A stretch of DNA of 64,000 nucleotides from Candidatus Omnitrophota bacterium (GTDB lineage: Bacteria > Omnitrophota > Gorgyraeia > Duberdicusellales > 4484-171): assembly GCA_024231025.1 (NCBI GenBank), contig JAAEQW010000120.1, forward strand, positions 2,324-66,323. Reading direction: 5' to 3'. The notes under the pieces were generated by a model. The model worked only from the letters and a program-made list of their open reading frames with translations, did no database searches and was not told the origin of the DNA. A program made the translations under genes and the position numbers. Below, piece by piece: positions 17,503-60,678 of this stretch. Position 1 is the stretch's first letter. Each line of letters begins with the position of its first letter.

Positions 17503-17532
17503 CCCGACTCCCTTACTAAAAAAATCGCTCAT

Positions 17533-20481: not shown

Positions 20482-20506
20482 ATTGTCAATCACGCAAATG
20501 GAGGTA

Positions 20507-21418: not shown

Positions 21419-21419
21419 A

Positions 21420-25443: not shown

Positions 25444-25896
25444 TTATATAAACAAATTGTCATTTTCAATATTCATACGCCGAATACGCTTACTCATATC
25501 CTGAATAACCTTATATAAGACCTTAACCCCCAGGCGCGGATGCTCTGAAACAAGTGCGCCAAAATCATCACGGATTATTTCAAAAAGCAAACATTCCTCA
25601 ACCGCAACCGCTGAAGCCGTACGCGGCACACGATCAAAAAGAGCAATTTCACCGAAAAAATCACCAGAATAAAGAGCGATGACCTCTCTCGTTTCCGTCT
25701 TAACCTTTCGAGTTATCCTGACCGTTCCTGAATCGATCAAAAACATCCCATTACTTGTTTCATTTTCCGAAAAAATTACGTCTCCAGCACTGAAACGTTT
25801 TTCTTTACAGATTGAAGCAACATTGTCGAGCTCATCTTCGGTTAAGAATTTAAACAAGAATACGCCCTTTAATCTTTCTAATTTGTCAGTAGTCAT
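25444..25896 (-). CDS. second stand-alone cyclic-nucleotide-binding domain protein, 150 aa (paralogue of 24833-25273)
   Basis: Phosphate-binding cassette SGDFFGEIALFDRVPRTASAVA, plus IFSENETSNGMFLIDSGTVRI. Confidence 0.8.
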   Translation of the reverse strand: MTTDKLERLKGVFLFKFLTEDELDNVASICKEKRFSAGDVIFSENETSNGMFLIDSGTVRITRKVKTETREVIALYSGDFFGEIALFDRVPRTASAVAVEECLLFEIIRDDFGALVSEHPRLGVKVLYKVIQDMSKRIRRMNIENDNLFI

Positions 25897-41102: not shown

Positions 41103-41121
41103 TTCTTTTATCTCCTTTAAA

Positions 41122-41574
41122 TTACTTATTCTTTATATCCCAGTTATAAGGTATTTTATCAGTACGAGGGTCTAGCCTGTCCATCTCTCCCGAAGTATTA
41201 GGCATTGTGGCACAATTAGCAACAATGGCCGGTTTACCACCAACAGCCAAATGACCATTCCAAACCAATGGAGGTATTTTAACGAGACAGTAGTTCTGAT
41301 CTCCAATAAATAGCTCCATTAGCCCTCCTTTTGTAGCAGAACCATCTCTGTCGTCAAAGAGCACAAGCTTTATCATGCCCTGTATAACCGCATAGTTTAA
41401 AGTCATCTCTTTGTGACTATGCCACCCCTTTATCGCTTTAGGGTATATAGTAGAAAAATAGATCTCTCCAAACTTTTCAAAAATAGGGTCATCATTGCGC
41501 AACATATGATAAATACACCCACGCTCATCCGGTATTTTTCTTAAAGATCTTACAACTACTCCTTCAATACTCAT
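41122..41574 (-). CDS. RmlC-like cupin sugar-nucleotide 3,5-epimerase / 3,4-ketoisomerase family protein, 150 aa
   Basis: Small cupin with GWHSHKE and FSTIYPKAIKGWH, resembling dTDP-4-dehydrorhamnose 3,5-epimerase or the MlghB/FdtA-type small cupins. Confidence 0.55.
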   Translation of the reverse strand: MSIEGVVVRSLRKIPDERGCIYHMLRNDDPIFEKFGEIYFSTIYPKAIKGWHSHKEMTLNYAVIQGMIKLVLFDDRDGSATKGGLMELFIGDQNYCLVKIPPLVWNGHLAVGGKPAIVANCATMPNTSGEMDRLDPRTDKIPYNWDIKNK

Positions 41575-41595
41575 CTCATCCTCCTTTAATATCTC

Positions 41596-42825
41596 TTAAA
41601 TTATCTCTATTTCCGGATAGGGCTTTATGATCTTTAGCCCTTTATCCCTATATTTCTCAATACTTTTTACAATCTCATTAAAATAAGTATATGATGTAAT
41701 CAACAAATAATCAAGCGGCTGTTTGCTGAGCGCGTCTGAAGACGCTACTGGTATGCCAAGCAAAGGAATAAAGCGTTTTTGTTTGTTTATATCTGAGTCG
41801 ATAACGTAGTTAAAAAAATCCTCACCCTGATCGATGGAGCTTATCATGGTGACACCACGTGAACCTGCCCCCCAAGCCCCTATCTTTTTACCCTTGCTCT
41901 TTATCTCGGACAAACACTGCGATATATTCTGCCGCCAATCTTGATAACCCTTGGCAAAAGAATCAACACCGCTATAATCGGTGGCCAACTGATCAAGATC
42001 ATGATCTTGATCATTCGAACAAAAAATACGCAAAAACTCACCCTGGCTGCTCTCTATTTCGGTAACATTTTTCCAACCCAACTTCTTTAAAAAACTAATC
42101 AAATAATCGGATGTAAAATAATATATATGATCATAGTAGAAATCAAAATAAAGGTTATTCTCCATCAAAAAAGACACATTAGGCACTTCAAGAAATAAAG
42201 CCCTCTGATCCTGGGAAACCCTATAACATTTATTAAGCGACTCCAGATAATTTAAAGGATCCGATATATGCTCCAAAACATGTCTCAAAACAAACAGATT
42301 TATACTCTTACCTTCTAATTGCTTTTGTTGAGCTGGATCAAAGTAATCATTATGCACTTCTATATTTTCATATTTTTTTGCCATCTGAAATGTAGGAGAC
42401 GGCTCAAAGCCTACAGCTTGCTTGCAATAACGTGACATTTGTTCAAGAAAGAAACCATCACCACAGCCTATCTCACAAACGCTCTTACCTTTTAAATCCA
42501 TCATCTTTGCTACATCTTCGGCCAGCTGTTTTTGATAGTGCATAGACTGAGTTGAAAAAGACATAGAAGAATAATAGTCTGGATCCTTATAATCATGACT
42601 CTTTGCCTGCGAAGTAAAATAATCACCGTTAAAGACAATGCGACAATCTTGGCACATAACTATATCAAGTCCCGCACTTTGGCAGTTAACCGCTTCTCTC
42701 TGGCTTTTGTACAGACTCTGTGACGAAGCCGGCATCTTCGTTGCTCTAAGCAGCGGCTTAATGCCTCGGGAAGAACAAAAAATACACTTATCTATTTTTT
42801 CCAAGGCGCTATACCTTCTTGCCAA
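41596..42825 (-). CDS. NDP-hexose C-methyltransferase (TylCIII-like: Zn-ribbon + class I SAM MTase + C-terminal domain), 409 aa
   Basis: N-terminal CxxC...CxxC (CIFC...CQDC), SAM motif I VCEIGCGDGFF, and the ~410-aa three-domain layout typical of sugar 3-C-methyltransferases. Confidence 0.65.
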   Translation of the reverse strand: MARRYSALEKIDKCIFCSSRGIKPLLRATKMPASSQSLYKSQREAVNCQSAGLDIVMCQDCRIVFNGDYFTSQAKSHDYKDPDYYSSMSFSTQSMHYQKQLAEDVAKMMDLKGKSVCEIGCGDGFFLEQMSRYCKQAVGFEPSPTFQMAKKYENIEVHNDYFDPAQQKQLEGKSINLFVLRHVLEHISDPLNYLESLNKCYRVSQDQRALFLEVPNVSFLMENNLYFDFYYDHIYYFTSDYLISFLKKLGWKNVTEIESSQGEFLRIFCSNDQDHDLDQLATDYSGVDSFAKGYQDWRQNISQCLSEIKSKGKKIGAWGAGSRGVTMISSIDQGEDFFNYVIDSDINKQKRFIPLLGIPVASSDALSKQPLDYLLITSYTYFNEIVKSIEKYRDKGLKIIKPYPEIEII

Positions 42826-43553
42826 AGACCCTCAAGAACATTTCTGTCTCTTATAGTATCCATACAATGCCAAAAACCTTCATGTTTATGCACCATCAAC
42901 TGCCCATCTTTTGCTAGATTCTCAAGAGGATCCTGTTCCAAAATAGTCTTATCACTCTTAAGATATTTAAATATCTCCGGCTGGAAAACAAAAAAACCAC
43001 CATTTACCCAGCCTTCACCGGTTTGAGACTTTTCTTTAAAATCAACGACCTTCTCGCCATCAAAACTCATACAACCAAACCGTGCCGAAGGCCTTACGGC
43101 AGTCACCGTGGCTATCTTCCCATGTGATTTATGGAACTCTACCAACTTCTCAATATCTACATCGCTAAGACCATCTCCATAAGTAAGCATAAAAGTCTCA
43201 TTAAGCTTACCCTCAAGTCTTCCAAGCCTTCCTCCAGTCATGGATTTTTCTCCGGTATCAACGAGATCTATTTTCCAGTCTTTGATGTTGTTATTTTCAG
43301 CAGTAATTTTACCAGTTTTTAGATCTATATTAAGATTGCTTTGATGATGATAATAATTTATAAAGTATTCCTTTATCATCTCACCCTTGTAGCCAAGAGC
43401 CAAGGTAAACTCCTTATATCCAAACGACCTATATATATTCATAATGTGCCATAAAATAGGTTTACCACCTATCTCTACCATCGGCTTTGGCCTATACTCT
43501 GTTTCCTCTCGCAATCGAGTGCCCATACCTCCGCACAAAACTACAACTTTCAT
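42792..43553 (-). CDS. rfbF: glucose-1-phosphate cytidylyltransferase (CDP-glucose pyrophosphorylase), 253 aa
   Basis: MKVVVLCGGMGTRLREETEYRPKPMVEIGGKPILWHIMNIY is a close match to the RfbF/DdhA N-terminus as recalled. The 253-aa length matches. Confidence 0.8.
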   Translation of the reverse strand: MKVVVLCGGMGTRLREETEYRPKPMVEIGGKPILWHIMNIYRSFGYKEFTLALGYKGEMIKEYFINYYHHQSNLNIDLKTGKITAENNNIKDWKIDLVDTGEKSMTGGRLGRLEGKLNETFMLTYGDGLSDVDIEKLVEFHKSHGKIATVTAVRPSARFGCMSFDGEKVVDFKEKSQTGEGWVNGGFFVFQPEIFKYLKSDKTILEQDPLENLAKDGQLMVHKHEGFWHCMDTIRDRNVLEGLWQEGIAPWKK

Positions 43554-43554
43554 A

Positions 43555-44484
43555 TTAATCCTCCGATATTTTATAGAACTCTACTGTACGCTTCAACCCT
43601 TCTTCTAAACTTATCTGCGGCTGCCAACCAATCTTTTCCTTTATGAGAGAAGTATCCGCATAAAGCTGCATATTCTCACCCTTACGATAAGGATAAGTGC
43701 CCCACAAAGGCGTCCCTTTGCCTGTTATCTTAACAATTTTCTCAACCATCTCTCGGATAGTAACAGCCTGACCTGAACCAACATTAAATATCTTACCCTT
43801 GGCGCTATTTGACAACGCTAGCTGGGCCAAAGCCTGAACTGCATCCTCTACATAACAAAAATCACGAAGCTGCTTCCCCTCAGAGGTTTTAAACTCTTCA
43901 CCATTAAGACAAGCTTTTATTATTTGCGGTAAAAATCGTCGGTCATCCTGACCAGGTCCGTAAACCAGAAAGAATCTCGCAACAACCCCTGGAAAATCTT
44001 CGGTTTTGCTAATCATTTGTATAAAATGAGAGGCGGCTGTTTTTGCAAAAGAATACGGCGATATTGACATTTCACGCATAGCTTCATTCTGCGGTGCCAA
44101 AAGCCCTCCATACTCATCGCTTGAGCCGATCTGAACAAAACCTTTTAATCTGTCCCAATCAATGCTATCTAATAAATTCATCAAACCAATAAGATGAGCC
44201 TCTATCACTCTGCGCCCACCCTTAAAATAATGGGTATGATCTATATAGCCCCCTAAGTTAAACACGTAGTCAAAAGCTCTTGCTTTGAGAGCCTTCGCAA
44301 GAGAAGGCTTATCACATAAATCAGCCGTAATATATTCAACATCCTTAATAGGCTCTGTCTTCTCAGGCAAAGATAAAACGGAAACGTTCTCTGTATCCTT
44401 TAAGCATCTTTTAACCAGATGGCTTCCGATAAATCCCGTACCTCCTATAACCAATATTTTGTCTAAAGCTTTAAAATTTTTCAT
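43555..44484 (-). CDS. NDP-sugar 4,6-dehydratase-like extended SDR (candidate CDP-hexose or GDP-heptose 4,6-dehydratase), 309 aa
   Basis: LVIGGTGFIGSHL, GSSDEYGG (the dehydratase-type S-x-D-E dyad, compare RmlB STDEVYG) and YSFAK. Confidence 0.55.
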   Translation of the reverse strand: MKNFKALDKILVIGGTGFIGSHLVKRCLKDTENVSVLSLPEKTEPIKDVEYITADLCDKPSLAKALKARAFDYVFNLGGYIDHTHYFKGGRRVIEAHLIGLMNLLDSIDWDRLKGFVQIGSSDEYGGLLAPQNEAMREMSISPYSFAKTAASHFIQMISKTEDFPGVVARFFLVYGPGQDDRRFLPQIIKACLNGEEFKTSEGKQLRDFCYVEDAVQALAQLALSNSAKGKIFNVGSGQAVTIREMVEKIVKITGKGTPLWGTYPYRKGENMQLYADTSLIKEKIGWQPQISLEEGLKRTVEFYKISED

Positions 44485-45917
44485 GATAAAAATAACTTAG
44501 AATATGTTACTAATGGCTGACCGATCCCCAATCTTTCTTTCATTTTTATGGAGCCCCCCCTTAAACCTACGCTACCCACCAAATCCCGTAACGAAATATC
44601 TTGATAATCCTTTCGCAAAGATCCTTCAATGCCTTCAATATTTATATACTGCAAATAATCAGAATTTGTGATTTGAATAACTGGCCGCCCAAGCAACAAG
44701 GCCTCTTCCAAAACTGTAGTGCTCATGCCAACAACCGTAATGGCGCCCTCTATGTCTTCTTTTAAACTAACGCCTTTAGACATCTGGATCAAACCTTTTT
44801 TAAGCTGCGCGTTTAACCATCTCTGCTTACTGCGCTTGATCTGTGCGTAGGGATGCAATCTTATTCTTATTTTCATTGGATCTTTAAGCTTTTCAACAAC
44901 TCTTTGCAAAGATGCAATTAAAACATCATTGTCAAAACTGGCAAGAGCACCCGCAAATAAATAATATTTTCCTTTTTTATCTGGATTAGCAACTACATCT
45001 TTCCAATGCGAATATCGATAGCTGCAACCTAAAAAAAACTTGGTATTGGCATAATAAGGCCTTAACAGGCCCATGATATCTTTGTTAAATACGTGCATAA
45101 CATCCGGCAAAGCCAAACCTCCCTCTATTTCCTCAGGGTGAGCAAAATACCACAGCTTACCCGGAGTAATCGCCGCGTGTTGAACCGCATAGCTTTTGGT
45201 TTTATACTTTTTGGCCACCTGCCAGGCTACCCTGGCATAAAAATGCATTTCGTGCACGCAACCTATTTTTTTAATATCGTATTTTTCTACAACTTGGGAC
45301 AACGCATGTTCAAGGTAATAAGCATATAGCCATCGCTGGCTTACTGCCCATTCAAACCACAGAAAGGTCAGCAATATCTTATCAAAAAGATTACCACGAA
45401 CTTGGCCGAAGGCATACGCTCCGCTCTTTACAAGGGCTAATCCGTACAACAGTTTGTGCCCTAATCCTAATTTTTCTATATCTTGTTCATCTTTACCGCA
45501 ATCCTTAGTCCGTCCAAAAACGAAGATACCGTCATCCTCATTGGTATAAACATAGGGAGTATGGTATACTCCATCCGACCCCTGTAAACCACACGTCGAT
45601 GATACCACCAAAATACTATCGTCTACTTTACCGTATACTGCATACTTAAAAGAGCTCGGACTAAAGGCTAGCTTAATCATGCCTTTAACGCCACTATAGA
45701 TTGTTCGGATCAAAAGACCGCAAAATAATCTTGCCTTGTGTTTTTTCCTATACCTCTCATGCCAAAGCATACATAGATCGGGACTCCTTGCACTCAAGGG
45801 AGATGCAAAGACCAATGACAACAATCTAGGAGGGATCACGTTTACCGCCTTGGATACAAATTTAATTGCTAATAATTCAAAATCATCACTAAACATTGCA
45901 CTATTTATTTGTTTCAA
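44481..45917 (-). CDS. GT-B-fold transferase of TagF/KpsC-like (glycerophospho- or capsule-polysaccharide transferase) type, 478 aa
   Basis: C-terminal RIRLHP...ITVVGMSTTVLEEALLLGRPVI resembles the HP catalytic and nucleotide-binding (ITDYSSV-like) motifs of Glyphos_transf/Capsule_synth families. It is a paralogue of 62504-63964. Confidence 0.35.
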   Translation of the reverse strand: MKQINSAMFSDDFELLAIKFVSKAVNVIPPRLLSLVFASPLSARSPDLCMLWHERYRKKHKARLFCGLLIRTIYSGVKGMIKLAFSPSSFKYAVYGKVDDSILVVSSTCGLQGSDGVYHTPYVYTNEDDGIFVFGRTKDCGKDEQDIEKLGLGHKLLYGLALVKSGAYAFGQVRGNLFDKILLTFLWFEWAVSQRWLYAYYLEHALSQVVEKYDIKKIGCVHEMHFYARVAWQVAKKYKTKSYAVQHAAITPGKLWYFAHPEEIEGGLALPDVMHVFNKDIMGLLRPYYANTKFFLGCSYRYSHWKDVVANPDKKGKYYLFAGALASFDNDVLIASLQRVVEKLKDPMKIRIRLHPYAQIKRSKQRWLNAQLKKGLIQMSKGVSLKEDIEGAITVVGMSTTVLEEALLLGRPVIQITNSDYLQYINIEGIEGSLRKDYQDISLRDLVGSVGLRGGSIKMKERLGIGQPLVTYSKLFLS

Positions 45918-46833
45918 AAAATCTTATCAAATTCTGTGTCGCCTCTAACTCCATCTGAATACGTGACTCTTTTGTCAAAGTAGCCACGTGAGGAGTTAAA
46001 ACAATATTCTCGATATCGCAAAGTTTTCCTTTATAAGGCTCTTGCCCAAAAACATCTAAGCCAGCACCAGCCAAATGGCCATCTTTTAAGGCATCGTATA
46101 AAGCATTCTCATCAACAAACTGACCACGGGCAACGTTAATCAGCATTGCGCCTTTCTTCATAGAAGAAATTTCTTTCTTGCCCAAAACAAATGGAGCGTC
46201 TTCTCTGAAGGTAATATGAATACTTACAATGTCACAAGCTAAAAGCAATTGGTCAAGGGCAATAATTTTTACGCCTGCCTGCTTTGCCCAATCAAGATCT
46301 GGCGCAATATCGCATCCATAAACCTTTGCGCCTAAAGATCTTATAAGTTCGGCTGTGCGCCGCCCTATTCTTCCTAAACCAATAATGCCAAATGTCTGTT
46401 CACTTAAAAGATTGCCGGTTTTTTTCTCCCAGCGCCCAGCCTTCAGAGATGCCGTTTGAACTGAAACCCTCTTCAAAAGATCAAAAGCAAATCCAACGGT
46501 CAACTCAGCAACCGGCTGGCTGACAACATCAGGCGTATTGCGCACAGCTATACCCCTTTGTTTAGCTTTATCAAGATCAATATTATCAATTCCAACGCCT
46601 AGGCGCGATATGCACTTTAACTTTGGCATGCTCTCGATGACTTGTGAATTAAACGGTTCAAGGCCAGCTATTGCTCCCTCGCAATCACCACCCATATCCA
46701 TAAGCTCATCGGCTGTTAACCGACGACCAAGCGAGTTTATGCGATAGCTCAAACCGCTTCGATCCAAAAGTTTAAGCGGCTGATCACCGTGTTTAGCAAA
46801 TGTTGATGCCGAAATAAATATCTGTCCCTTCAT
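45901..46833 (-). CDS. D-isomer-specific 2-hydroxyacid dehydrogenase (NAD-binding), 310 aa
   Basis: FGIIGLGRIGRRTAELIRSLGAKVYGCD is the classical GxGxxG(17x)D NAD motif of the D-2-HADH family, and the HVA catalytic-His region is present (LTPHVATLTKES). Confidence 0.85.
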   Translation of the reverse strand: MKGQIFISASTFAKHGDQPLKLLDRSGLSYRINSLGRRLTADELMDMGGDCEGAIAGLEPFNSQVIESMPKLKCISRLGVGIDNIDLDKAKQRGIAVRNTPDVVSQPVAELTVGFAFDLLKRVSVQTASLKAGRWEKKTGNLLSEQTFGIIGLGRIGRRTAELIRSLGAKVYGCDIAPDLDWAKQAGVKIIALDQLLLACDIVSIHITFREDAPFVLGKKEISSMKKGAMLINVARGQFVDENALYDALKDGHLAGAGLDVFGQEPYKGKLCDIENIVLTPHVATLTKESRIQMELEATQNLIRFFETNK

Positions 46834-47618
46834 GCGATCTCTCCTTTAAGTTGTGCTATTTTTTCGTAAAAATCTTTTTGAGTTAAGTCATTTCTTAAAA
46901 TATCCTCTACACTCGCTACATCATCTTCTCGATCTACACCCACTGTTCTCTGGGAGTATATTACTCCTCTTATTGAGTAGCCATGCTCTAAGATGCGTAA
47001 AAAATCGACTGACTCCACCACCTCTTTTGGCGTAGGATCAAGACGAGAAAATTTATGTAAAAATTCTTTAGTAAATGCCGATATGCCTGTTTGACGATAC
47101 ATAGGACATTTATCATCAACTCTAAAGTAAGGTATTGGCGATCTGGAAAAGTACATCACATCATTTTTATTATTGATCACTGCCTTAACAATATCAATAT
47201 CGTCCAAATCTGCCTTATCTTCAATGACTGATAACAGGTTTGTGCAAATCATTGAATCACACTCAAACATGGGCTTTACCAAAACCTCTAAAACCTGCGG
47301 ATCAAACAAGGGTTCATCACCCTGGACTATTACAACAATATCAGCATCCAGATCCATTGCCGCCTCATCAACCCTGTCAGTACAACGTTGGTGAGTATCT
47401 TTTGTCATAACAGCCTTACCACCGGAGTTGTTCACTACGTCAAAAATCTCTTTATCGCAAGTGGCAACATATGTTTGGTCTATCACCTTTGACAAAGATA
47501 CTCTTCTTCTTACATGTTCGATCATCGGCAGATCTAATATTTTTGCCAAAGGTTTACCTGGAAAACGCGAAGCAGCCATCCTGGCTGGTATTATTGCAAC
47601 AACTTTTTTCTTACTCAT
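46830..47618 (-). CDS. CMP-3-deoxy-ulosonic acid cytidylyltransferase (KdsB-like, CTP_transf_3 family), ~262 aa
   Basis: VVAIIPARMAASRFPGKPL matches the KdsB IIPAR..S.R.PGKPL motif. The ATG at 47618 overlaps the stop of the downstream SDR gene (ATGA). Confidence 0.7.
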   Translation of the reverse strand: MSKKKVVAIIPARMAASRFPGKPLAKILDLPMIEHVRRRVSLSKVIDQTYVATCDKEIFDVVNNSGGKAVMTKDTHQRCTDRVDEAAMDLDADIVVIVQGDEPLFDPQVLEVLVKPMFECDSMICTNLLSVIEDKADLDDIDIVKAVINNKNDVMYFSRSPIPYFRVDDKCPMYRQTGISAFTKEFLHKFSRLDPTPKEVVESVDFLRILEHGYSIRGVIYSQRTVGVDREDDVASVEDILRNDLTQKDFYEKIAQLKGEIA

Positions 47619-48364
47619 AATGGCATCACTCCACAATCAACATTTATTGATTGCCCGGTTATGGCTGAGCTTGAGTTTGAAGCTAAAAATAGACAGCTGT
47701 CGGCCACCTCTTTTGCCTGCGGCAAACGCTTTAAACCCGATTGAGATTTAGCAAAACTACTTAAGTAACTTTTAATATTTTTACCTGCCGTTGGTGACAC
47801 CTTACTTTTTAGAGCCTGCAGCAAACCTTTGGTCTCGATATACACCGGGCAAATTGCATTAACCCTTATTCCATCCTTACCCAGCTCCTTTGACAAAGCT
47901 TGAGTCAATCCGGTTACTCCAAATTTAGAAGCGCAATATACAGAGTTATTCGCGCTACCCCGACGACCAGCAAGGCTCGAAATATTTATTATAGCTCCAC
48001 CTTTATTCAAGCTCTGTGCTGCAACCTTACATCCTAAAAAAGTACCTTTTAAGTTAGTATCGATCATGGCATTCCAAAAATCATTAGTTACCTTGCCAAT
48101 CGGTGACCATTTAGAAAAACCTGCGCAGTTAATATAAACATCCAAGCGCTTGGTCCATTTTTTTGCTGACTGGACCACCTTTTGGTGATCACTCTCTTTG
48201 CGTACATCACACTTGATGAAGCGAACATCTTCACCCAACTCTCTTGACAACCCTGTGTCGGTGCGAGCAGCAACAACAACTCGATATCCGGCCTGTGCAA
48301 AGCTGCGAGTTATTTGGGCCCCTATACCCTTATTCCCGCCAGTAATAACTACAGTTTTTTTCAT
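47615..48364 (-). CDS. classical SDR oxidoreductase, 249 aa
   Basis: TGGNKGIG, NISS...YCASK (YxxxK). Confidence 0.85.
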   Translation of the reverse strand: MKKTVVITGGNKGIGAQITRSFAQAGYRVVVAARTDTGLSRELGEDVRFIKCDVRKESDHQKVVQSAKKWTKRLDVYINCAGFSKWSPIGKVTNDFWNAMIDTNLKGTFLGCKVAAQSLNKGGAIINISSLAGRRGSANNSVYCASKFGVTGLTQALSKELGKDGIRVNAICPVYIETKGLLQALKSKVSPTAGKNIKSYLSSFAKSQSGLKRLPQAKEVADSCLFLASNSSSAITGQSINVDCGVMPL

Positions 48365-48378
48365 TTATAAATCCTTTT

Positions 48379-49158
48379 TTAAATGGTCATACTTGAAAAT
48401 CCGCCATCAACAGCAATCTCAGCACCAGTAACAAAGCTTGCCGCATCAGAACATAGCCAAATAACAGCTCCAATAAGCTCTGAGGGCTTCCCGTAACGCT
48501 TCATAGCCGTATGCCCCAAAATCGCTGCTTCTCTTTCTTTTGTGATAAAATTCTTTTTACTCCACTCTGTGGGAAAAAATCCTGGACGAAGAGCATTGAC
48601 TCTAACACCCTTGGTTGCCCATTCACGAGCTATATTTTGCGTAATATTTTTAACACCAGACTTAGCCACTGAATATGCAAAAGCCTTTGATAGTGGCGGC
48701 CCGGCTGATGCTGAAGAAATATTTATAATTGATCCACTGCCATTTTTAAGCATATGCTCTCCAAAAACCTGACAGCCTAAAAAAGTACCGGTTAAATGAA
48801 CTTCTATTATGGAATTCCATTCATCCAGTGGTATATCTAAAAATGGTGTAGGAGCATTAATGCCTGCGCCGTTTATCAAGATATCCACCTTACCAAACTC
48901 TAGGCTTGCCTTATCAAGAACTTGAGCATGCTCTTCTTTTGTAGTAACCCCGCTTACCACTCCAACGACTTTACCACCGTCTTTTTTAATTTCACTGACC
49001 TTTTCATCAACTCTCTTTTTATCATTGTCGACTATCACCACAGATACCCCTGACTTGGCTAAGGCACAGGCCATTGTGCCGCAAAGAAATCCCCCGCCAC
49101 CGGTTATAACTGCAACCTTGTCTTTAACGGTAAAAAGTTCTCCAACATATTCTGACAT
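48379..49158 (-). CDS. classical SDR oxidoreductase, 259 aa
   Basis: VITGGGGFLCGTMA, YSVAK. Confidence 0.85.
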   Translation of the reverse strand: MSEYVGELFTVKDKVAVITGGGGFLCGTMACALAKSGVSVVIVDNDKKRVDEKVSEIKKDGGKVVGVVSGVTTKEEHAQVLDKASLEFGKVDILINGAGINAPTPFLDIPLDEWNSIIEVHLTGTFLGCQVFGEHMLKNGSGSIINISSASAGPPLSKAFAYSVAKSGVKNITQNIAREWATKGVRVNALRPGFFPTEWSKKNFITKEREAAILGHTAMKRYGKPSELIGAVIWLCSDAASFVTGAEIAVDGGFSSMTI

Positions 49159-49171
49159 AATTAAACTCCCC

Positions 49172-49807
49172 TTAATTATTTAACAAAAAATTTTGAACTT
49201 GGGCCATGTTATTAAATATTGGAACATCGTCTCTACCAAATGGTTTCTTGCTATCGCGACCAATAAAGAATGTTTCTGTATCTTGCGCACTCTTTAAATC
49301 CTCAGGTGTATCGCCAATAAAAACCATATCGCCCAGAGAAACGCCTTCTCGCCCTGCAATATCTTTTAAAGTATCAACTTTAACCCAGGGATAGGCATAA
49401 ACATCTTTAAAATACTTGGCAATGCCTCGCTTATTAAGTATGCGCATAAATTCATCTTTTGGATTAACTGTAGCAATATACATCGGAACCTTATCATAAA
49501 AATAATCTAAAAAATCCATTGCCCCATCAACATAGGGGCAAGCTATGATAGATTTTAAAACATAGTCCGAATATTGCGCACACATTTGATCTTCTAGCTG
49601 TTGAGTATATGTTTTATTCAGAATATGCTCAGTTATATATTTAAATTTTGTATACCTTATAGTTGCGTTGTTGGCAAGATGATAGCGCATTATCTCATCT
49701 ATCTTATCAGGATAATTTTTAAAAAGATCTTCGAAAGCCTTATCCTTTATACCAACAGACTCAACCAAAGTACCGTCAAAGTCTAAAGCTATAACCTTAA
49801 ATTGCAT
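49172..49807 (-). CDS. HAD-superfamily phosphatase, 211 aa
   Basis: Motif I IALDFDGTLV (DxDGT) and FIGDTPED (motif IV). Confidence 0.75.
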   Translation of the reverse strand: MQFKVIALDFDGTLVESVGIKDKAFEDLFKNYPDKIDEIMRYHLANNATIRYTKFKYITEHILNKTYTQQLEDQMCAQYSDYVLKSIIACPYVDGAMDFLDYFYDKVPMYIATVNPKDEFMRILNKRGIAKYFKDVYAYPWVKVDTLKDIAGREGVSLGDMVFIGDTPEDLKSAQDTETFFIGRDSKKPFGRDDVPIFNNMAQVQNFLLNN

Positions 49808-49808
49808 A

Positions 49809-50588
49809 TTAACTTACTATTCCTTGCATCTTCTTACCCCACTCTAACAAAATAAAAATATCAGATGCCAAAACCACAAATGTGTACCCTTGATCAAATT
49901 TTTCACAAACACTTTTTTTACAAGGAGTTATATCCTGGGTTCCACACCCCTTGCCAAACTTTTTACAAGCATCAATTACCCGACCGGCTGCTTTTTTAAC
50001 CTTAGCATGCTCAATCTGCCCTGGTATCCCTAATGATCCTGATATATCATAAGGACCGATCATTACTCCATCAATAGCATCAACCGAAAGTATCTTATCA
50101 ATATTATCTACCGCGGTTATTGACTCTATCTGCACGATTAAAAACCCCGACTCATTCCAATCATTAATATACTGGTCAAAATCAAACCCATAACCTTGGG
50201 CACGAGAGATGCCAAATCCACGAATACCCTGTGGCGGATACTGCATCCACGAAGCTATCTCTCTTGCTTGGCTTGCAGTTTCAACCATTGGGACAATAAG
50301 ACCGTCGGCTCCAGAATCAAGCAGACGTTTGATCATCTCCATATTGTGCGTAGCTACTCTCGGCAAGCATAATGAGCCGCCGGATTGGCTTGCAGCAATA
50401 ATCCTCTGGGACTGCTCCTGGCTAATTGTACTATGTTCAATGTCAATTCCTATAAAATCAACACCAATCTTAGCGAACATTTCGGTAACCGATGGGTGGG
50501 CCAGAGACGTCCAAGCCGCAAACATGGTTTTACGACTTCTTAACTTGCCCTTAAGCTCGAATCTCTTCTGATTTAATTTTTTGGTCAT
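49809..50588 (-). CDS. HpcH/HpaI-family class II pyruvate aldolase (2-keto-3-deoxy-sugar-acid aldolase family), 259 aa
   Basis: GVDFIGIDIEH, GADGLIVPMVETA, YPPQGIRGFG and LIVQIES are the conserved HpcH/HpaI blocks. Confidence 0.85.
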   Translation of the reverse strand: MTKKLNQKRFELKGKLRSRKTMFAAWTSLAHPSVTEMFAKIGVDFIGIDIEHSTISQEQSQRIIAASQSGGSLCLPRVATHNMEMIKRLLDSGADGLIVPMVETASQAREIASWMQYPPQGIRGFGISRAQGYGFDFDQYINDWNESGFLIVQIESITAVDNIDKILSVDAIDGVMIGPYDISGSLGIPGQIEHAKVKKAAGRVIDACKKFGKGCGTQDITPCKKSVCEKFDQGYTFVVLASDIFILLEWGKKMQGIVS

Positions 50589-51270
50589 TGTTTACCTCTG
50601 ATTTTGCTGCATCATTTAAAAACATTTGCACCGTCTCTTTAGTATACGGATGCACAATCATCCCCTCAACTAACTTAGGTAACGCAGTTACAATATGAGC
50701 GCCAGCGTGCAACCACTCAATAATATTGAGAACTTCGCGAGTTGAGCCAATTATAATCTTTGCCTTCAGCTGAAAGTCGTCGAGAAGTTTGCGTAATTTT
50801 TTAATCTCTTCGATTGAGCTATAACCCATGTTGTTAACCCGGCCACCGAACAAAGAAACATAAGTAGCTCCTGCCATAGCTGCCACAAAGCATTGTTGCG
50901 CACTCATCATTGCTGTCACATTAACCCGAACGTTATGCATTGTCTCAAGCTCATGCACAACAGCTAAGTTATCCAACTCACCATTGGGGCCATGCACAGT
51001 AATCTTCACATTGATATTCTCGGCAAGAGAAGCAAAATACTTACCTTGAGCGATCATCTCTTTGCGATCGTTGGTTGTAACCTCAATAGAAAGCGGATAA
51101 GGATGAATAAGCTCCGCGATCTGGACTGCCACCTTTTCTACGGCGGCGATACCGCCGCGAACACCATCTTTAAGTAAAATCGTTGGATTAGTGGTAACTC
51201 CTCGAATTACCCCTAACTCATGAAACTTTTTGATGTCCTCTAACTTTCCTGTGTCTAAAAATATTGCCAT
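50551..51270 (-). CDS. transaldolase-family protein of fructose-6-phosphate aldolase / TalC type, 239 aa
   Basis: MAIFLDTGKLEDIKKFHELGVIRGVTTNPTIL matches the FSA/TalC N-terminus (LDTANV...GVTTNPSI) and the ~220-aa size class. Confidence 0.85.
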   Translation of the reverse strand: MAIFLDTGKLEDIKKFHELGVIRGVTTNPTILLKDGVRGGIAAVEKVAVQIAELIHPYPLSIEVTTNDRKEMIAQGKYFASLAENINVKITVHGPNGELDNLAVVHELETMHNVRVNVTAMMSAQQCFVAAMAGATYVSLFGGRVNNMGYSSIEEIKKLRKLLDDFQLKAKIIIGSTREVLNIIEWLHAGAHIVTALPKLVEGMIVHPYTKETVQMFLNDAAKSEVNNDQKIKSEEIRA

Positions 51271-51292
51271 AACAAACCTCCTCTAAAAATTT

Positions 51293-51898
51293 TTACTTCG
51301 CCGATAAAGTAGTCTCCCACTTATTACCCATAACCATTACTCGTGGATCAGAAACAATCATATGCCAAATAATAGCCTGAAAAGCTTCTGCCTGTGGGGT
51401 TAACATATTAGGCTGCGAAGCCGGCATCACAATACAAACATCCGCAACTTTTGGCGTATAACCGCCGGTTCTACCTACAATACCAAAAATCTTTGCCTTT
51501 TGTGATTGAGCGTACTCTAAAGCTTCAACGATATTGGTACTAATATTTTTCTCCTTATTGCCTCCGCCTACAGAAAATACCATAATGCCATCATTAGCGT
51601 TTAGCCTACTTCCCTTAAGCCATCCGCTAAAAATTGTGCTCCATCCTTCATCGTTAGCTCGAGCCGTAAGCTCAGCTACATTATCCACAGGCGAGTAAGC
51701 CTCAAAACCACCAATTTTACGAAAATCGTTTACCGCATGGGCACAGTTAGCTGCACTGCCACCTACGCCGATAAAAAATAGTCGTCCACCTTTTTTGCGT
51801 ATATCCAGCAATAAGGCAATCATCTCTTCCAATTGATCCCTGTCAACCGCGTTCAGGATATCCACGATACTTTTTAAATAATCATTTGCATACGACAT
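51293..51898 (-). CDS. SIS-domain sugar-phosphate isomerase, GmhA (sedoheptulose-7-P isomerase)-like, ~202 aa
   Basis: RLFFIGVGGSAANCAHAVNDF...GIMVFSVGGG are SIS signatures. The start ATG at 51898 has GGAGG 7 nt upstream. The track's longer ORF to 52063 would overlap the upstream gene and lacks an RBS. Confidence 0.7.
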   Translation of the reverse strand: MSYANDYLKSIVDILNAVDRDQLEEMIALLLDIRKKGGRLFFIGVGGSAANCAHAVNDFRKIGGFEAYSPVDNVAELTARANDEGWSTIFSGWLKGSRLNANDGIMVFSVGGGNKEKNISTNIVEALEYAQSQKAKIFGIVGRTGGYTPKVADVCIVMPASQPNMLTPQAEAFQAIIWHMIVSDPRVMVMGNKWETTLSAK

Positions 51899-51911
51899 AG
51901 TATAGCCTCCT

Positions 51912-52859
51912 TCAATTACTACCATTAGCCAACCGCGCCAAGCGATGTTGTGCTGGCCCATCATATAAATAATAGGCTGGTGGCATGCACTTATAGTATT
52001 TTTGTTGCCATGGGCACAATTCATCAACGATAATTTCATCATCGCTTCTCCATGGATAATCAAAAAAACGCGTCACTGTACCATCCGGCAGCATTTTTTC
52101 TACTCGATTGCAACAATATATATACGGATTAATGATCTTGGATGCGCGCAAAATACGAAAATATTGATCAATAATTTCAGGATTCATCTCCTGGAATGAA
52201 GCAATATTAGCAGCTAAACCAATAGGGCTGCCTGATAGCAATTCGCAGTTATCTGCCTGCAATGCAATAACCGAAACTTTTTTATCGCGAAGAGCTAATT
52301 GCATTTGATCTGCATTTTCGACCAAAGCCAACGATACACCTTTATTTGCCTTCAAGATACACGCTATATCTACCGCTAAAACTGGGGTTAAATTAACACA
52401 AATTATCTTAGTAATTTTGTTGCTCGGCAAGCAAGATAACAACATATTTGTCAAATTAGCGAACCCATCGCCAATTATACAAATATTGCCAGATAATTCA
52501 TTTAAACTTATCTTCTCCATCAGAAACGCCAAAGTCAAAGCCTGACGCAACTGATCAAGGTCAAAACATCTCCCCTGTTTTTTTGCAATCGCTTTACCGC
52601 TCTTGCAAATTTCTTGAATAAGATTCTTTTGTCCCCATCGATAATATGGCTTTTGCATCAAATGATGTACAAAATTAATAGAAAAATTATACTTTCTGTT
52701 ACCGCCAAAACCCTTCATTCCAGAAAAATTTCCATCATTAAAAGAAAAATCTTTCAAATAAAACTGCCAGTGAGAAGACCGCCCTTCCTCTAAATTATTC
52801 GCCAAAACTGCCAGTCGTGATATTGCTTCATCATTAAATTTTAATTGATCGGTAATCAC
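51912..52859 (-). CDS. hypothetical protein, 315 aa, possibly a Rossmann/methyltransferase-like fold
   Basis: NICIIGDGFANLTNML resembles a SAM motif I but is not diagnostic. Confidence 0.3.
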   Translation of the reverse strand: MITDQLKFNDEAISRLAVLANNLEEGRSSHWQFYLKDFSFNDGNFSGMKGFGGNRKYNFSINFVHHLMQKPYYRWGQKNLIQEICKSGKAIAKKQGRCFDLDQLRQALTLAFLMEKISLNELSGNICIIGDGFANLTNMLLSCLPSNKITKIICVNLTPVLAVDIACILKANKGVSLALVENADQMQLALRDKKVSVIALQADNCELLSGSPIGLAANIASFQEMNPEIIDQYFRILRASKIINPYIYCCNRVEKMLPDGTVTRFFDYPWRSDDEIIVDELCPWQQKYYKCMPPAYYLYDGPAQHRLARLANGSN

Positions 52860-52874
52860 CGTGGATACCTCCTT

Positions 52875-53888
52875 TTAGCCATTTTTCCTTATAACGATTC
52901 GTGCATAAGAACTTAACAAATTCGTCTGCAAAAACTCCTGAAAAGCCTGCCGAACAGAGTCGTCACCATCAACAATCATATTTTGCACAAATTTCGGCAA
53001 GGTAACATCAGGATTACGCCCCGCAGTGGCTTTAACATTTTCAACATCAAGAATGCCTGGAGTACTAAATTCCAAACATTCAAAGTTATGCCGAGTAAAT
53101 AAATTACGAAAGCCCTTTACGGAAAAAACATTAAGTCTATCCGGAGCAAATAAGTTTTCCGACTTATCCCAAAGTACTTGAAAATCAAAACCAGACGCTA
53201 AAATTGAAGTGATGAAACAAATTCCGCCAGGTTGGAGCATTTGACTCACTTTTTGGAAAAGTAAATTTATATCTGAGGTATGATCGCAAACTTCAAAAAG
53301 TGAAACAACATCAACATCACCTTCAAGCTCAATGCTATCTAGGCCTTTATCAACTATACTAAGATCTTTTTTTTCTGAATTAATTTGCAGAAAAGGGTTT
53401 ATCAATGTTTTCCGATCAAAAACTTGAGATTTCTCTATCGCTTCAATATAGACTTCTTGATCAGTATTTATATCGACATAGTGTTTTTGATTATCTAAAT
53501 ACTCTAAGGTAGAGTCTTCAATCCAAGCGAATCGTGGGTTTACAATCTTATTCTTACGAGTCTTATCCGTAGAGCGAGTGAGCCTTTCGCGCCATAGAAT
53601 GCGTGCCGGCGATTCCCTATAGTAACGAACAATATCGTTATCCGCCGGCCGCGGAGATATGTAAAGCGTACCGCAATTCTCACACTCATTATATTTTAAA
53701 CCGAACTTCTCAAAAGTTGTAGAAACCTGCTGACTTCCGCAGCCGGGACAGGTACATTTATTAAGTTCGCTATTGGTCAAGAAAAAACTCTGGATACTTT
53801 CGGCAGTAAGCTTAACATAGTCGTTAAACATCTCTGCTGGTTTTAGATCAACACCATTATACCGATCAAAAATAACAACACTTTTCAC
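52875..53888 (-). CDS. class I SAM-dependent methyltransferase with N-terminal Cys4 zinc ribbon, 337 aa
   Basis: CPGCG...CENCG, followed by a Rossmann-type methyltransferase core (LQPGGICFITS). Confidence 0.5.
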   Translation of the reverse strand: MKSVVIFDRYNGVDLKPAEMFNDYVKLTAESIQSFFLTNSELNKCTCPGCGSQQVSTTFEKFGLKYNECENCGTLYISPRPADNDIVRYYRESPARILWRERLTRSTDKTRKNKIVNPRFAWIEDSTLEYLDNQKHYVDINTDQEVYIEAIEKSQVFDRKTLINPFLQINSEKKDLSIVDKGLDSIELEGDVDVVSLFEVCDHTSDINLLFQKVSQMLQPGGICFITSILASGFDFQVLWDKSENLFAPDRLNVFSVKGFRNLFTRHNFECLEFSTPGILDVENVKATAGRNPDVTLPKFVQNMIVDGDDSVRQAFQEFLQTNLLSSYARIVIRKNG

Positions 53889-54910
53889 TTATAAACCTCC
53901 TGGTATGTTTGAGAATCAATGTAGGCTTTCTCAATAATCTTCATTACCTTTAATGCATCCTGTGATGAACTAATATCAACTGTTTTATCCTGATCAATGC
54001 AATCTAAGAACTCTTTAACCTCTAAATCCCAAGAGAGATCGCGATCAAAATGAGTGATCTCTTCCTCAGGATTACCCACAGCGTAAGCTTCATCCTCAAA
54101 CTGACGTTTACCCAAGATTAACCGCTCACGGCCATAGCTACCGCTCTTTGAAAGAAGACCCTCTACCGTCGCGTATCCTTCCTCTAAAATCATTTCCAAT
54201 TTAAAAGTATGCTTCCATAAAGTAGCAGAAGAGTGTAGCGAAGCTGTCTGACCGCTTTTGTTTTTCATAATCATGTGAGCGTTGTCTTCGATAGCAAACT
54301 TCCAAAAGGAGTTACTAGTAAAACACTTAACTTGTTCAAAATCATTACAAAAATAAAGAAACAAATCTAGCATGTGAATACCCTGGTCGAGCAAAATTCC
54401 ACCCCCGGAAACACTACGATCATTACGCCAGGAGCTGGGAAAATTTTTGCCACCAGATTTACCATAAACACCTCTGAGAGATACTATATCCCCAAGTCTG
54501 CCACTATTAATAATCGCTCTAGCCTTTATGATTCCTGGATGGAAACGATGATTAAAGCCAAACATTAGCTTTATTTTTTTATTACGCTTTTCGCTTTTTA
54601 TAATATCTTCTATATCTTTTACATCGCGACCAGGCGGTTTTTCGCAAAAAATATGCTTACCGGCATTCATCCCGGCTATACACAACTCAGGCGAAGAAGA
54701 GTTAGGCGTACAAACAAAAACTATGTCTAAAACATCTTTAAAGATATCCTCAGCTTTATCATAAAGCCTGCAACCCGTAATTTTACTACGTATTTGGGAA
54801 TTAACCTCAAAAATGCCAACAAGCTCCAAGCAAGGATTAGCCTCAATAACCTTTCTTCTAATCTCTCCCATATAACCATAACCGATAATCGCTGCTTTCT
54901 TAACTTTCAT
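53885..54910 (-). CDS. Gfo/Idh/MocA-family NAD(P)-dependent sugar oxidoreductase, 341 aa
   Basis: KAAIIGYGYMG...VFVCTPNSSSPELCIAGMNAGKHIFCEKP is the N-terminal Rossmann domain with the EKP motif. Confidence 0.85.
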   Translation of the reverse strand: MKVKKAAIIGYGYMGEIRRKVIEANPCLELVGIFEVNSQIRSKITGCRLYDKAEDIFKDVLDIVFVCTPNSSSPELCIAGMNAGKHIFCEKPPGRDVKDIEDIIKSEKRNKKIKLMFGFNHRFHPGIIKARAIINSGRLGDIVSLRGVYGKSGGKNFPSSWRNDRSVSGGGILLDQGIHMLDLFLYFCNDFEQVKCFTSNSFWKFAIEDNAHMIMKNKSGQTASLHSSATLWKHTFKLEMILEEGYATVEGLLSKSGSYGRERLILGKRQFEDEAYAVGNPEEEITHFDRDLSWDLEVKEFLDCIDQDKTVDISSSQDALKVMKIIEKAYIDSQTYQEVYK

Positions 54911-55448
54911 TCAAAACCACCTCTGTTCTTTTCATCACATAATCAACCAACTTTTTAACCGATTCTGCTGCTGTTTCTTTTTCCGAATCTATTATTAGGT
55001 CCGGCATTGTCGGCGCCTCATAATCCACTCCACCAAAACCGATTAGATCGATTATTTCGCGATCTTTAGCTTTACAATACAAGCCCTTCACATCACGTTG
55101 GGTTACGCAACCTAAGCCAGCGCTAAAATAAATTTCATAAAAATTGGGTGCTAGCTTAGAGCAAGCATCGCTACGGGATACTTTAAACGGCGATATTATA
55201 GGTACCATGATGACATCATAGCTATCTTTATTTTCTTCACAAATTAAAGTAATCAAACGATTATTCTCTTTGATATCTTCCGGAGTAAAGCTCAAATGCT
55301 GGTGATACCTTTCTCGTACCTGATCGCCGTCTACGATAAATGTCATCAGACCTTTCTTTTCTAAAACTTTAGCCGCCTGCACGGCAACGGTTGTTTTGCC
55401 TGAACCGGAAAGCCCCGTAAACCAAAAAATGTTAGAGTTTTTTTTCAT
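54900..55448 (-). CDS. cysC: adenylylsulfate (APS) kinase, 182 aa
   Basis: FWFTGLSGSGKTTVA P-loop and the FIVDGDQVR segment match APS kinase. Confidence 0.9.
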   Translation of the reverse strand: MKKNSNIFWFTGLSGSGKTTVAVQAAKVLEKKGLMTFIVDGDQVRERYHQHLSFTPEDIKENNRLITLICEENKDSYDVIMVPIISPFKVSRSDACSKLAPNFYEIYFSAGLGCVTQRDVKGLYCKAKDREIIDLIGFGGVDYEAPTMPDLIIDSEKETAAESVKKLVDYVMKRTEVVLNES

Positions 55449-57622: not shown

Positions 57623-57638
57623 ATGTAGCCTGCCTTTA

Positions 57639-60677: not shown

Positions 60678-60678
60678 T

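Follow-up and report, generated by a model that had tools for sequence, protein, structure and literature searches.

The subject of this analysis is a 64,000-nucleotide stretch of DNA from Candidatus Omnitrophota bacterium (assembly GCA_024231025.1, contig JAAEQW010000120.1, positions 2,324 to 66,323 of the forward strand), hereafter called the window, and in particular a cassette of 10-12 genes at 44481-54910 on its minus strand. Our reading, which is tentative and derives from sequence comparison, is that this cassette builds and CMP (cytidine monophosphate)-activates an acidic sugar related to Kdo (3-deoxy-D-manno-octulosonate) but distinct from it, starting from sugar phosphates and pyruvate and dispensing with a phosphoenolpyruvate (PEP)-dependent synthase. 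To our knowledge, all characterised routes to CMP-ulosonic acids (Kdo, Kdn, sialic, legionaminic and pseudaminic acids) make the keto-acid skeleton with such a synthase. In the cassette, a transaldolase (TAL), a class II pyruvate aldolase (HpcH) and a dehydrogenase resembling phosphoglycerate dehydrogenase (PGDH) stand where the PEP-dependent synthase is usual. The pathway is independent of KdsA; that HpcH replaces KdsA, as a preliminary description of this DNA had proposed, is one of several readings that fit. A reading to which we give somewhat less than an even chance is that HpcH is a C-C bond-forming extender, common also to cassettes having a KdsA paralogue, and no one-for-one replacement of KdsA. 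The genes of the cassette, from the first to the last, are the following.

53885-54910, minus strand: GFO, NAD(P) sugar oxidoreductase of the GFO/IDH/MocA family (Pfam PF01408/PF22725); first cassette gene.
52875-53888, minus strand: MT23, Zn-ribbon plus class I S-adenosylmethionine (SAM) methyltransferase (Pfam Methyltransf_23); always after GFO.
51912-52859, minus strand: NanM-type putative sugar O-methyltransferase (NCBIfam TIGR04371, 45.1 bits vs. a cut-off of 44).
51293-51898, minus strand: SIS, SIS_2 sugar-phosphate aldose-ketose isomerase (Pfam SIS_2), weakly GmhA-like (44.9 bits vs. a cut-off of 209).
50551-51270, minus strand: TAL, transaldolase of the subfamily-5 type (Pfam TAL_FSA).
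49809-50588, minus strand: HpcH, HpcH/HpaI class II (metal-dependent) pyruvate aldolase (PF03328, E 7.6e-33).
49172-49807, minus strand: HAD, HAD-IA-type phosphatase (Pfam HAD_2/Hydrolase), with a weak likeness to phosphoglycolate phosphatase.
48379-49158, minus strand: SDR_B, classical short-chain dehydrogenase/reductase (SDR) of NAD type (NCBIfam PRK08277 249.8 bits, KduD 176 bits).
47615-48364, minus strand: SDR_A, classical FabG-like SDR of NADP(H) type (Pfam and NCBIfam).
46830-47636, minus strand: KdsBL, KdsB/KpsU-like cytidylyltransferase (PF02348, CTP_transf_3; PRK13368 272 bits vs. a cut-off of 255).
45901-46833, minus strand: HADH, D-2-hydroxyacid dehydrogenase resembling PGDH and 2-ketoaldonate reductase (Pfam 2-Hacid_dh(_C)).
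44481-45917, minus strand: GT-B-fold protein with no Pfam family, a candidate transferase.

The contig that holds the window measures 132.6 kb. From about 64 kb down to about 24 kb of the window, nearly all genes lie on the minus strand and make up a single long glycan-biosynthesis operon. The cassette is larger than the eight genes first named (45901-51898), all of which are present head to tail on the minus strand and correctly named according to Pfam and NCBIfam. Neighbourhoods of HpcH homologues were gathered from three large contigs and from 80 species-representative genomes; the organism labels of carriers known from metagenome-assembled genomes (MAGs) are record titles. Open reading frames (ORFs) in the related loci come from a simple caller, and a few genes counted as absent from GC-rich loci may be miscalls. 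In what we call type A, to which the window belongs, the order is fixed: GFO, Zn-ribbon methyltransferase, SIS, TAL, HpcH, HAD, SDR_B, SDR_A, KdsBL, HADH. Among the 39 complete HpcH-seeded loci without a KdsA paralogue, GFO and MT23 are each found in 36, SIS and HAD in 34, KdsBL and HADH in 32, TAL and SDR_B in 31, and SDR_A in 29. Such a grouping is far above chance expectation. The order is kept in more than 35 complete loci of many phyla, among them an archaeal MAG and MAGs with Gram-positive labels, in support of the surmise that the genes form a single conserved cassette making a sugar acid activated with CMP.

Type-A carriers are labelled Omnitrophota, Planctomycetes, Chloroflexota, Thermodesulfobacteriota, Elusimicrobia, Marinimicrobia and Coriobacteriia, together with a Methanomicrobiaceae archaeon, Kiloniella laminariae and Halopseudomonas aestusnigri. 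As far as we know, the Kdo pathway is not expected in Chloroflexota, Coriobacteriia and Methanomicrobiaceae. Variants also occur. Four loci have HpcH and neither SDR (L005, L041, L043, L044), four are reduced to GFO-MT23-SIS-TAL-HpcH-HAD (L029, L058, L061, L076), and a minimal locus (L080) consists of HpcH-KdsBL-HADH, with HpcH coupled directly to KdsBL. No published description of the cassette was found in full-text literature searches, the coverage of which leaves out most subscription journals.

The absence of a KdsA/NeuB-type synthase, reported in the preliminary description, extends to the scanned ORFs of the whole 64-kb window. Neither a DAHP_synth_1 (KdsA) nor a NeuB domain was found in scanned ORFs of at least 150 aa, the 5291-aa ORF at 1672-17547 being scanned as its two terminal pieces of about 1500 aa. 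A six-frame search of the window with a profile of the KdsA paralogue likewise gave no hit (best E 1.2). The cassette would not become ordinary even if the genome had a canonical kdsA at another place.

By its sequence, HpcH is a genuine class II pyruvate aldolase, with a predicted activity on a sugar aldehyde. Its alignment with YfaU, GarL and HpaI, the nearest solved relatives, spans the whole protein, and H52, R77, E155 and D181 fall on the catalytic His/Arg/Glu/Asp positions of YfaU and GarL; these four residues are conserved across 110 HpcH homologues. This bears out its placement in the sugar-acid group of the family. A citrate lyase beta subunit, for which no citrate-lyase model matches, was ruled out. 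The scores on the HpaI, GarL and RhmA equivalog models (143-156 bits) all lie below the cut-offs (369-441), and of 2365 homologues the best 120 are all at least 61% identical. The subfamily has invariant residues of its own (K116, R129, Y133, W144, N145) and occurs solely in glycan biosynthesis loci. It appears from these comparisons to be a distinct, highly conserved subfamily, orthologous to no characterised enzyme. As regards gene arrangement, the TAL and HpcH genes overlap by 38 nt, and HAD directly follows HpcH in nearly all type-A cassettes, an adjacency that is kept in the rearranged cassettes L027 and L059. The eight TAL contexts sampled, a small sample, include four type-A loci, and none of these is without HpcH.

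TAL is the most conserved gene of the cassette (62-82% identity). It had been called an FSA/TalC transaldolase. The TAL_FSA family stands and the FSA identity was rejected, with 110 bits against the Bacillus subtilis transaldolase vs. 46 bits against FSA; the best solved matches are the transaldolases of Bacillus, Thermotoga and Thermoplasma, with which the Glu/Lys/Phe positions align. SIS (201 aa) aligns to phosphoheptose isomerases, is a distant relative of GmhA and has no CBS domain. The eight genomic contexts of the TAL subfamily divide evenly. Type-A cassettes make up one half (the window, L001, L164 and L169) and loci of nucleoside diphosphate (NDP)-sugar type the other (L165, L167, L168 and L170). 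In the latter, TAL is 72-75% and SIS 53% identical, a GHMP kinase adjoins and, in most, a GmhB-type HAD and a sugar-1-phosphate nucleotidyltransferase are present; by analogy, this is the layout of the GDP-heptose and lincomycin octose pathways. With a GHMP kinase, a GmhB-like HAD and a nucleotidyltransferase beside them, the product of TAL and SIS in these loci must be an aldose phosphate. In the lincomycin route, the transaldolase LmbR makes octulose 8-phosphate from fructose 6-phosphate or sedoheptulose 7-phosphate plus ribose 5-phosphate, LmbN isomerises it, and LmbP, LmbK and LmbO complete the pathway. Because the pair elsewhere feeds NDP-heptose or NDP-octose routes, like LmbR/LmbN, TAL and SIS in the window may be seen as a portable two-gene module that probably supplies a higher aldose phosphate. 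Most bacteria need no dedicated transaldolase for sedoheptulose 7-phosphate, and for this reason we lean toward an octose as the product; heptose 7-phosphate made from erythrose 4-phosphate would fit the sequence data equally well.

KdsBL is predicted to activate the sugar acid with CMP. The preliminary label of KdsB-like CMP-transferase can be kept in so far as the protein is closest to KpsU and passes PRK13368; it misses the kdsB equivalog, just below the cut-off (147.3 vs. 155.2 bits). All 13 of its strong solved matches (E <= 4e-25) are CMP-Kdo synthetases, the best being the Escherichia coli capsule enzyme KpsU (150 bits; type-B KdsBL, from the sister cassettes described below, scores 126 bits against KpsU). 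KdsBL reaches only 28.6 bits on PseF, NeuA gives no match, and the sugar-side motif LEQLR of KpsU is altered to VDFLR. Its gene is joined to that of HADH by a 4-nt overlap, and in type-A loci the two are jointly present or jointly absent. The best models for HADH are PGDH (214 bits), glyoxylate reductase (198 bits) and GhrB (152 bits); the best solved match is the PGDH of Pyrococcus horikoshii (193 bits), and a probable 2-ketogluconate reductase is also among the solved matches. The last protein of the cassette has a confidently predicted GT-B fold (predicted local distance difference test, pLDDT, 92), is remotely homologous (hhalign 96%) to a family flanking all cassette types and lies between the CDP-hexose branch of the operon and the cassette. 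The predicted fold makes it a candidate CMP-sugar transferase or, alternatively, an enzyme of the NDP-sugar hydrolase/epimerase kind.

By the standard SDR cofactor rules, which we take to apply here, the two SDRs differ. SDR_B has an Asp at the end of strand beta2 (VVIVD), an NAD-type signature, and resembles the mannonate, gluconate-5 and KduD families. SDR_A has the motifs GGNKGIG and VVVAAR, an NADP(H)-type signature, and is therefore likely a reductase. HAD matches solely HAD_2/HAD-IA and phosphoglycolate-phosphatase models and is neither KdsC- nor GmhB-like. On a Coriobacteriia-labelled contig (L169:10487-12088), a fusion protein of 533 aa unites the cassette HAD with a Methyltransf_23 domain, which suggests dephosphorylation and methylation on one common intermediate. 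The nearest solved relatives of GFO are sugar C1, C2 and C3 dehydrogenases, and its gene ends in a 4-nt overlap with the beginning of MT23. MT23 carries an N-terminal CxxC...CxxC in the window sequence, and no solved homologue of it was found by sequence. Homologues of the NanM-type methyltransferase, an accessory tailoring gene, are found inside 20 of 83 cassettes, of both types.

From the gene identities and catalytic motifs, the synteny, the modularity of TAL and SIS and the unit behaviour of HpcH and the SDRs (see below), all of which are observed, we infer substrates, an order of steps and a product size. In the resulting model, the cassette would be a horizontally mobile unit assembling its sugar de novo. 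TAL would transfer a C3 (dihydroxyacetone) unit from fructose 6-phosphate or sedoheptulose 7-phosphate to an aldose phosphate, for which erythrose 4-phosphate, ribose 5-phosphate and arabinose 5-phosphate are candidates. SIS would isomerise the ketose phosphate so formed to a heptose or octose phosphate, a higher aldose phosphate, in the manner of LmbR/LmbN. HpcH would next join pyruvate to a sugar aldehyde, most likely the TAL/SIS aldose phosphate, to give a 3-deoxy-2-ulosonate phosphate of 10-11 carbons; the chances that HpcH does act on this aldose phosphate seem to us about even. The adjacent HAD would strip off the phosphate and thereby pull the reversible aldol reaction forward. The NAD-type and the NADPH-type SDR would oxidise and reduce the sugar acid, with GFO and the methyltransferases tailoring it further. 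HADH would work directly with KdsBL, probably setting the 2-keto group, and KdsBL would then form the CMP-sugar, for which the GT-B protein is the candidate transferase. The sugar product is probably larger than C8. We rather doubt that HpcH makes the CMP-activated keto-acid end, as claimed preliminarily; a setting of this end by HADH is a serious possibility, although short of probable. The model fits the 38-nt overlap of TAL and HpcH and the adjacency of HpcH and HAD. It also fits the loci made of GFO-MT23-SIS-TAL-HpcH-HAD, the SDR-less type-A variants and the minimal L080.

About one third of the HpcH loci are sister cassettes, called type B, which are built on a specialised KdsA paralogue (KdsA*). 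Their carriers include Leptospira noguchii, Aquirufa, Flavobacteriaceae, and Legionella and Methylobacter MAGs, and their order is KdsA*, CBS pair, [NanM], HpcH, SDR_B, [PhyH], SDR_A, KdsBL, GT-B relative, with optional genes in brackets. GFO, MT23, SIS, TAL and HAD are each found in 0 of 16 complete type-B loci and HADH in 2 of 16. KdsA* scores as a Kdo8P synthase (334 bits vs. a cut-off of 242), is about 50% identical to the solved KDO8PS enzymes and 74-82% identical across phyla. The motif YDKDCRS is present in all 19 full-length sequences in which the motif region was found; the solved enzymes read DKANRS or DKANRT there. KdsA* genes lie at L050:8631-9512, at L057:7781-8659, in 19 further genome loci and in L084-L163, the stand-alone CBS-pair protein always following them. 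Two protein families of obscure kind, L050_6032 and L050_7311, often precede KdsA*, and hhalign comparisons with the MT, HAD and SIS families revealed no relation.

A metagenome scan seeded with KdsA* gave 80 more loci. Among the 60 loci, from genomes and metagenomes, having KdsA* and a downstream KdsBL, the trio HpcH-SDR-SDR is found in 42 and missing from 18. The latter, called type B0, are KdsA*-CBS-KdsBL-GT-B and are polyphyletic in neighbour-joining trees; with one remnant excepted, the SDRs are never kept without HpcH in KdsA* loci. The trio is thus a removable functional unit in type B, the backbone of which comes from KdsA*. KdsA* itself is horizontally spread, and its minimal cassettes, KdsA*-CBS-KdsB-like-GT-B, presumably serve for a Kdo analogue. 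Between types A and B, the HpcH proteins show 3 type-specific positions and 41 positions conserved to at least 95% in both; SDR_A and SDR_B show one type-specific position each. With only 1-3 type-specific positions among those conserved in both types, HpcH, SDR_B, SDR_A and KdsBL of types A and B are treated here as isofunctional.

Several of these observations weigh against the model given above. The trio, with its 1-3 type-specific residues, is present in KdsA* cassettes that lack TAL and SIS, and the acceptor of type-B HpcH cannot be made by TAL and SIS, unless housekeeping enzymes supply the same aldose phosphate; why an isofunctional HpcH persists beside KdsA* in such hosts is not explained by the model. 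The trio is lost whole in 18 of 60 loci, all of which keep KdsA*, KdsBL and GT-B; this is the behaviour of a tailoring or extension block and not of a backbone synthase. In addition, the strict complementarity of KdsA*-CBS with GFO, MT23, SIS, TAL, HAD and HADH suggests that these six genes replace KdsA, rather than HpcH. Finally, the model has no explanation for the roles of GFO, MT23 and HADH. As to the preliminary proposal of a pyruvate-based HpcH in the place of KdsA, its KdsA-independent part stands, whereas the replacement itself has to face an orthologous HpcH that co-occurs with a KdsA paralogue elsewhere.

These facts can be turned into an oxidative route to the keto acid, which on balance we find unlikely. 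TAL and SIS would provide an octose 8-phosphate, GFO would oxidise C1 and HADH C2 to give the 2-ulosonate, and the trio would extend the far end. TAL, SIS, GFO and HADH, with HAD, would then be the true equivalent of KdsA, a role we give only a small probability. At the far end, SDR_B would convert the terminal CH2OH into an aldehyde, HpcH would add pyruvate and SDR_A would reduce the keto group; the resulting 11-carbon dicarboxylic sugar acid is an equally improbable product in our view. Such a route would account for the complementarity of KdsA*-CBS and six type-A genes with a trio common to both types, for the existence of B0 cassettes and the loss of the trio as a whole, and for the constant pairing of KdsBL with HADH, a D-2-hydroxyacid dehydrogenase whose family matches include GhrB and the probable 2-ketogluconate reductase. 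One SDR of NAD type and another of NADP type would also be in keeping with it. An oxidation of Kdo at C8 is known, since KdnB of the Kdo8N pathway converts C8 to an aldehyde, and an iron-containing alcohol dehydrogenase (Fe-ADH) of the KdnB family is translationally coupled to HpcH in L081 (8850-10768). Moreover, E. coli KdsB tolerates C8-modified Kdo, so that one KdsBL could serve both B and B0. However, the SDR-less type-A variants keep HpcH, and the loci made of GFO-MT23-SIS-TAL-HpcH-HAD, like L080, are devoid of a required oxidase or reductase. The conserved TAL-HpcH-HAD adjacency is left unexplained, the nearest characterised relatives of SDR_B oxidise a penultimate secondary alcohol and not a primary one, and a C11 diacid sugar of this kind is not known from any report. 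The four type-A loci reached via TAL, none of them without HpcH, also speak against this route.

A further reading, also unlikely in our estimation, is that type A and its KdsA* sister are convergent routes to one unprecedented 11-carbon dicarboxylic ulosonic acid, C3+C5+C3, with two aldol-type C-C bonds. The units may be PEP, pentose 5-phosphate and pyruvate in the sister and a TAL-derived C3, pentose 5-phosphate and pyruvate in type A. HpcH may build one end, to be reduced by the NADPH-type SDR; the other, the CMP-activated 2-keto acid end, may be due to KdsA* in the sisters and to an oxidation ending with the PGDH-like HADH in type A. In a hybrid model, HpcH may act on the TAL/SIS aldose phosphate and the opposite end may be oxidised to the CMP-activated keto acid, the scaffold being that of the oxidative route. 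This hybrid or convergent scheme is the sole one found in which each conserved enzyme has one and the same job in the two types.

A literal Kdo-type route to a C8 acid appears improbable. SIS would be an arabinose-5-phosphate isomerase, HpcH would condense arabinose 5-phosphate with pyruvate into Kdo 8-phosphate or an epimer, HAD and KdsBL would act as KdsC and KdsB, and the remaining genes would be for tailoring. A one-to-one correspondence with KdsD, KdsA, KdsC and KdsB and a KdsBL about as near to KpsU as the type-B enzyme (150 vs. 126 bits) are in its favor, and arabinose 5-phosphate would exist in the lipopolysaccharide-bearing type-B hosts too, in agreement with an isofunctional HpcH. 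On the other hand, the Kdo-route steps that the preliminary description had assigned to SIS and HAD are not upheld. SIS is of the SIS_2/GmhA type without CBS domains, hence not KdsD, and is paired with TAL as in LmbR/LmbN; HAD is of HAD-IA type and not a KdsC-type HAD-IIIA enzyme. The conserved dedicated transaldolase would have no role in arabinose 5-phosphate synthesis, TAL and SIS elsewhere feed the GHMP-kinase/GmhB-type HAD/nucleotidyltransferase route typical of heptose or octose, and type B has HpcH side by side with a KdsA paralogue.

Three further ideas can be treated briefly. That HADH and HAD make hydroxypyruvate from 3-phosphoglycerate as the aldolase donor was considered and may hold; however, HAD co-varies with SIS and TAL, HADH with KdsBL, and type B is without both. 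HpcH as a C4 epimerase by retro-aldol/re-aldol chemistry fits poorly with the loss of the trio as a whole and with near-identical HpcH residues despite 3-deoxy vs. 3-hydroxy substrates. A synthesis of the KdsA* acceptor by HpcH-SDR-SDR was rejected, the aldolase product bearing a carboxylate and not an aldehyde. Least probable by far, and rejected for the window, is the earlier alternative of an NDP-heptose made by SIS and HAD with the nucleotidyltransferase NTP30027 (30027-30719), the aldolase being unrelated: SIS is GmhA-like, NTP30027 has some likeness to HddC (116 bits) and orthologous TAL and SIS pairs serve such routes in other genomes, but the window has neither the GHMP (HddA-type) kinase nor the GmhB-type HAD that are both present in the sister TAL and SIS loci, HAD is a HAD-IA enzyme syntenic with HpcH in 34 of 39 loci, NTP30027 is at a distance of 19 kb and far under the HddC cut-off of 300, and SIS, TAL, HpcH and HAD travel together across phyla.

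The model of TAL, SIS and HpcH acting in series has partial counterparts among known systems. Like the Kdo pathway (KdsD/KdsA/KdsC/KdsB, or KpsF/KpsU for capsules), the cassette would derive a CMP-activated 2-keto sugar acid from a sugar phosphate with an isomerase, a phosphatase and a KdsB-family enzyme. Unlike it, the cassette has no PEP-dependent synthase, no KdsD-type isomerase (SIS plus two CBS) and no KdsC-type phosphatase; it adds a transaldolase, a class II pyruvate aldolase, GFO, a PGDH-like dehydrogenase and two SDRs, and its KdsBL is under the kdsB equivalog cut-off with a changed LEQLR. The adjacent Schiff-base transaldolase and GmhA-like isomerase are as in LmbR/LmbN, although the aldose phosphate is here proposed for an aldolase/phosphatase/CMP-transferase branch and not for an NDP-sugar. 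With the NeuC/NeuB/NeuA pathways (sialic, Kdn, legionaminic and pseudaminic acids), the proposed route shares the gain of C3 on an aldose, CMP activation and, as for Kdn, a HAD phosphatase, and the GT-B-fold partner protein resembles NeuC/LegG. In contrast, the donor would be pyruvate via the metal-dependent HpcH instead of PEP via NeuB, the cytidylyltransferase is KdsB-type, and the core is devoid of aminotransferase and acetyltransferase. YfaU/RhmA, GarL and HpaI have the same fold and family as HpcH, which keeps their His/Arg/Glu/Asp set; they are catabolic, whereas cassette HpcH reaches only about 150 bits on their equivalog models. Two likenesses are single-step analogies only: Kdo8N/KdnB is a precedent for C8 oxidation in the oxidative route, the window having neither aminotransferase nor Fe-ADH, and aldonate oxidation of the Epd/PdxB or TkrA type is one for the interconversion of 2-hydroxy and 2-keto sugar acids by a D-2-hydroxyacid dehydrogenase.

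The cassette, itself uncharacterised, is present in thousands of environmental genomes, including MAGs labelled as lineages where the Kdo pathway is not expected. If our reading is true, it would stand for acidic surface sugars of a class so far unrecognised, and for a biosynthetic logic that is new among higher-carbon sugars. Also identified are KdsA*, a Kdo8P-synthase paralogue of a specialised kind (YDKDCRS), and a GT-B family, as yet unannotated, that travels with these pathways. Cultured carriers of the cassettes are Kiloniella laminariae, Halopseudomonas aestusnigri, Leptospira noguchii serovar Panama and Aquirufa.

The surroundings of the cassette hold further glycan genes. On one side, at 40074-44484 (minus strand), is the CDP-hexose branch, with a glucose-1-phosphate cytidylyltransferase (360 bits vs. 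a cut-off of 300), a 4,6-dehydratase-like enzyme, a C-methyltransferase with a Methyltransf_14 tail, an RmlC-like epimerase and a further epimerase/reductase; homologues of this branch adjoin cassettes of all three types (L007, L033, L036, L055, L128). On the other side, at 55445-57658 (minus strand), a 737-aa fusion combines a pyruvate-kinase catalytic barrel, PUA_2 and ATP sulfurylase, and is adjoined by an adenosine 5'-phosphosulfate (APS) kinase and a sulfotransferase (54900-55448, 57639-58838). This fusion may couple PEP-driven ATP regeneration, with local release of pyruvate, to the synthesis of 3'-phosphoadenosine 5'-phosphosulfate (PAPS) for a sulfated glycan; a 48%-identical homologue stands with an APS kinase beside the type-A cassette of L022. 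Next, at 59916-62491 (minus strand), come a KduD-like SDR, a 3-dehydroquinate synthase (DHQS; aroB equivalog 318.5 vs. a cut-off of 305) and a PseF-like cytidylyltransferase (61829-62491), the latter being outside the cassette. The same module recurs beside type-A and type-B cassettes (L005, L169:1-2663, L072:1679-6748), which suggests a second CMP-activated product obtained by DHQS-type chemistry on a 3-deoxy-ulosonate phosphate. In L076 (12271-18264), phosphonate genes, for a PEP mutase-nucleotidyltransferase fusion and an Fe-ADH, come after the reduced cassette GFO-MT23-SIS-TAL-HpcH-HAD.

Farther away, at 32928-35749 (minus strand), are two adjacent genes for B12-binding radical SAM proteins, which may be C-methylases of the sugar and have homologues in several related cassettes. 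A protein of 320 aa at 30739-31701 (minus strand), which contains an IS200-like Y1 transposase domain, lies inside the operon and in its orientation, between a glycosyltransferase and a nucleotidyltransferase. A cNMP-binding protein (25444-25896) stands at the end of the glycan operon. Beyond it, TPR proteins and a CHASE2-adenylate/guanylate cyclase (18130-24005, plus strand) adjoin the 5291-aa surface-type protein (1672-17547, minus strand), which has FecR, Big_6 and fn3 domains.

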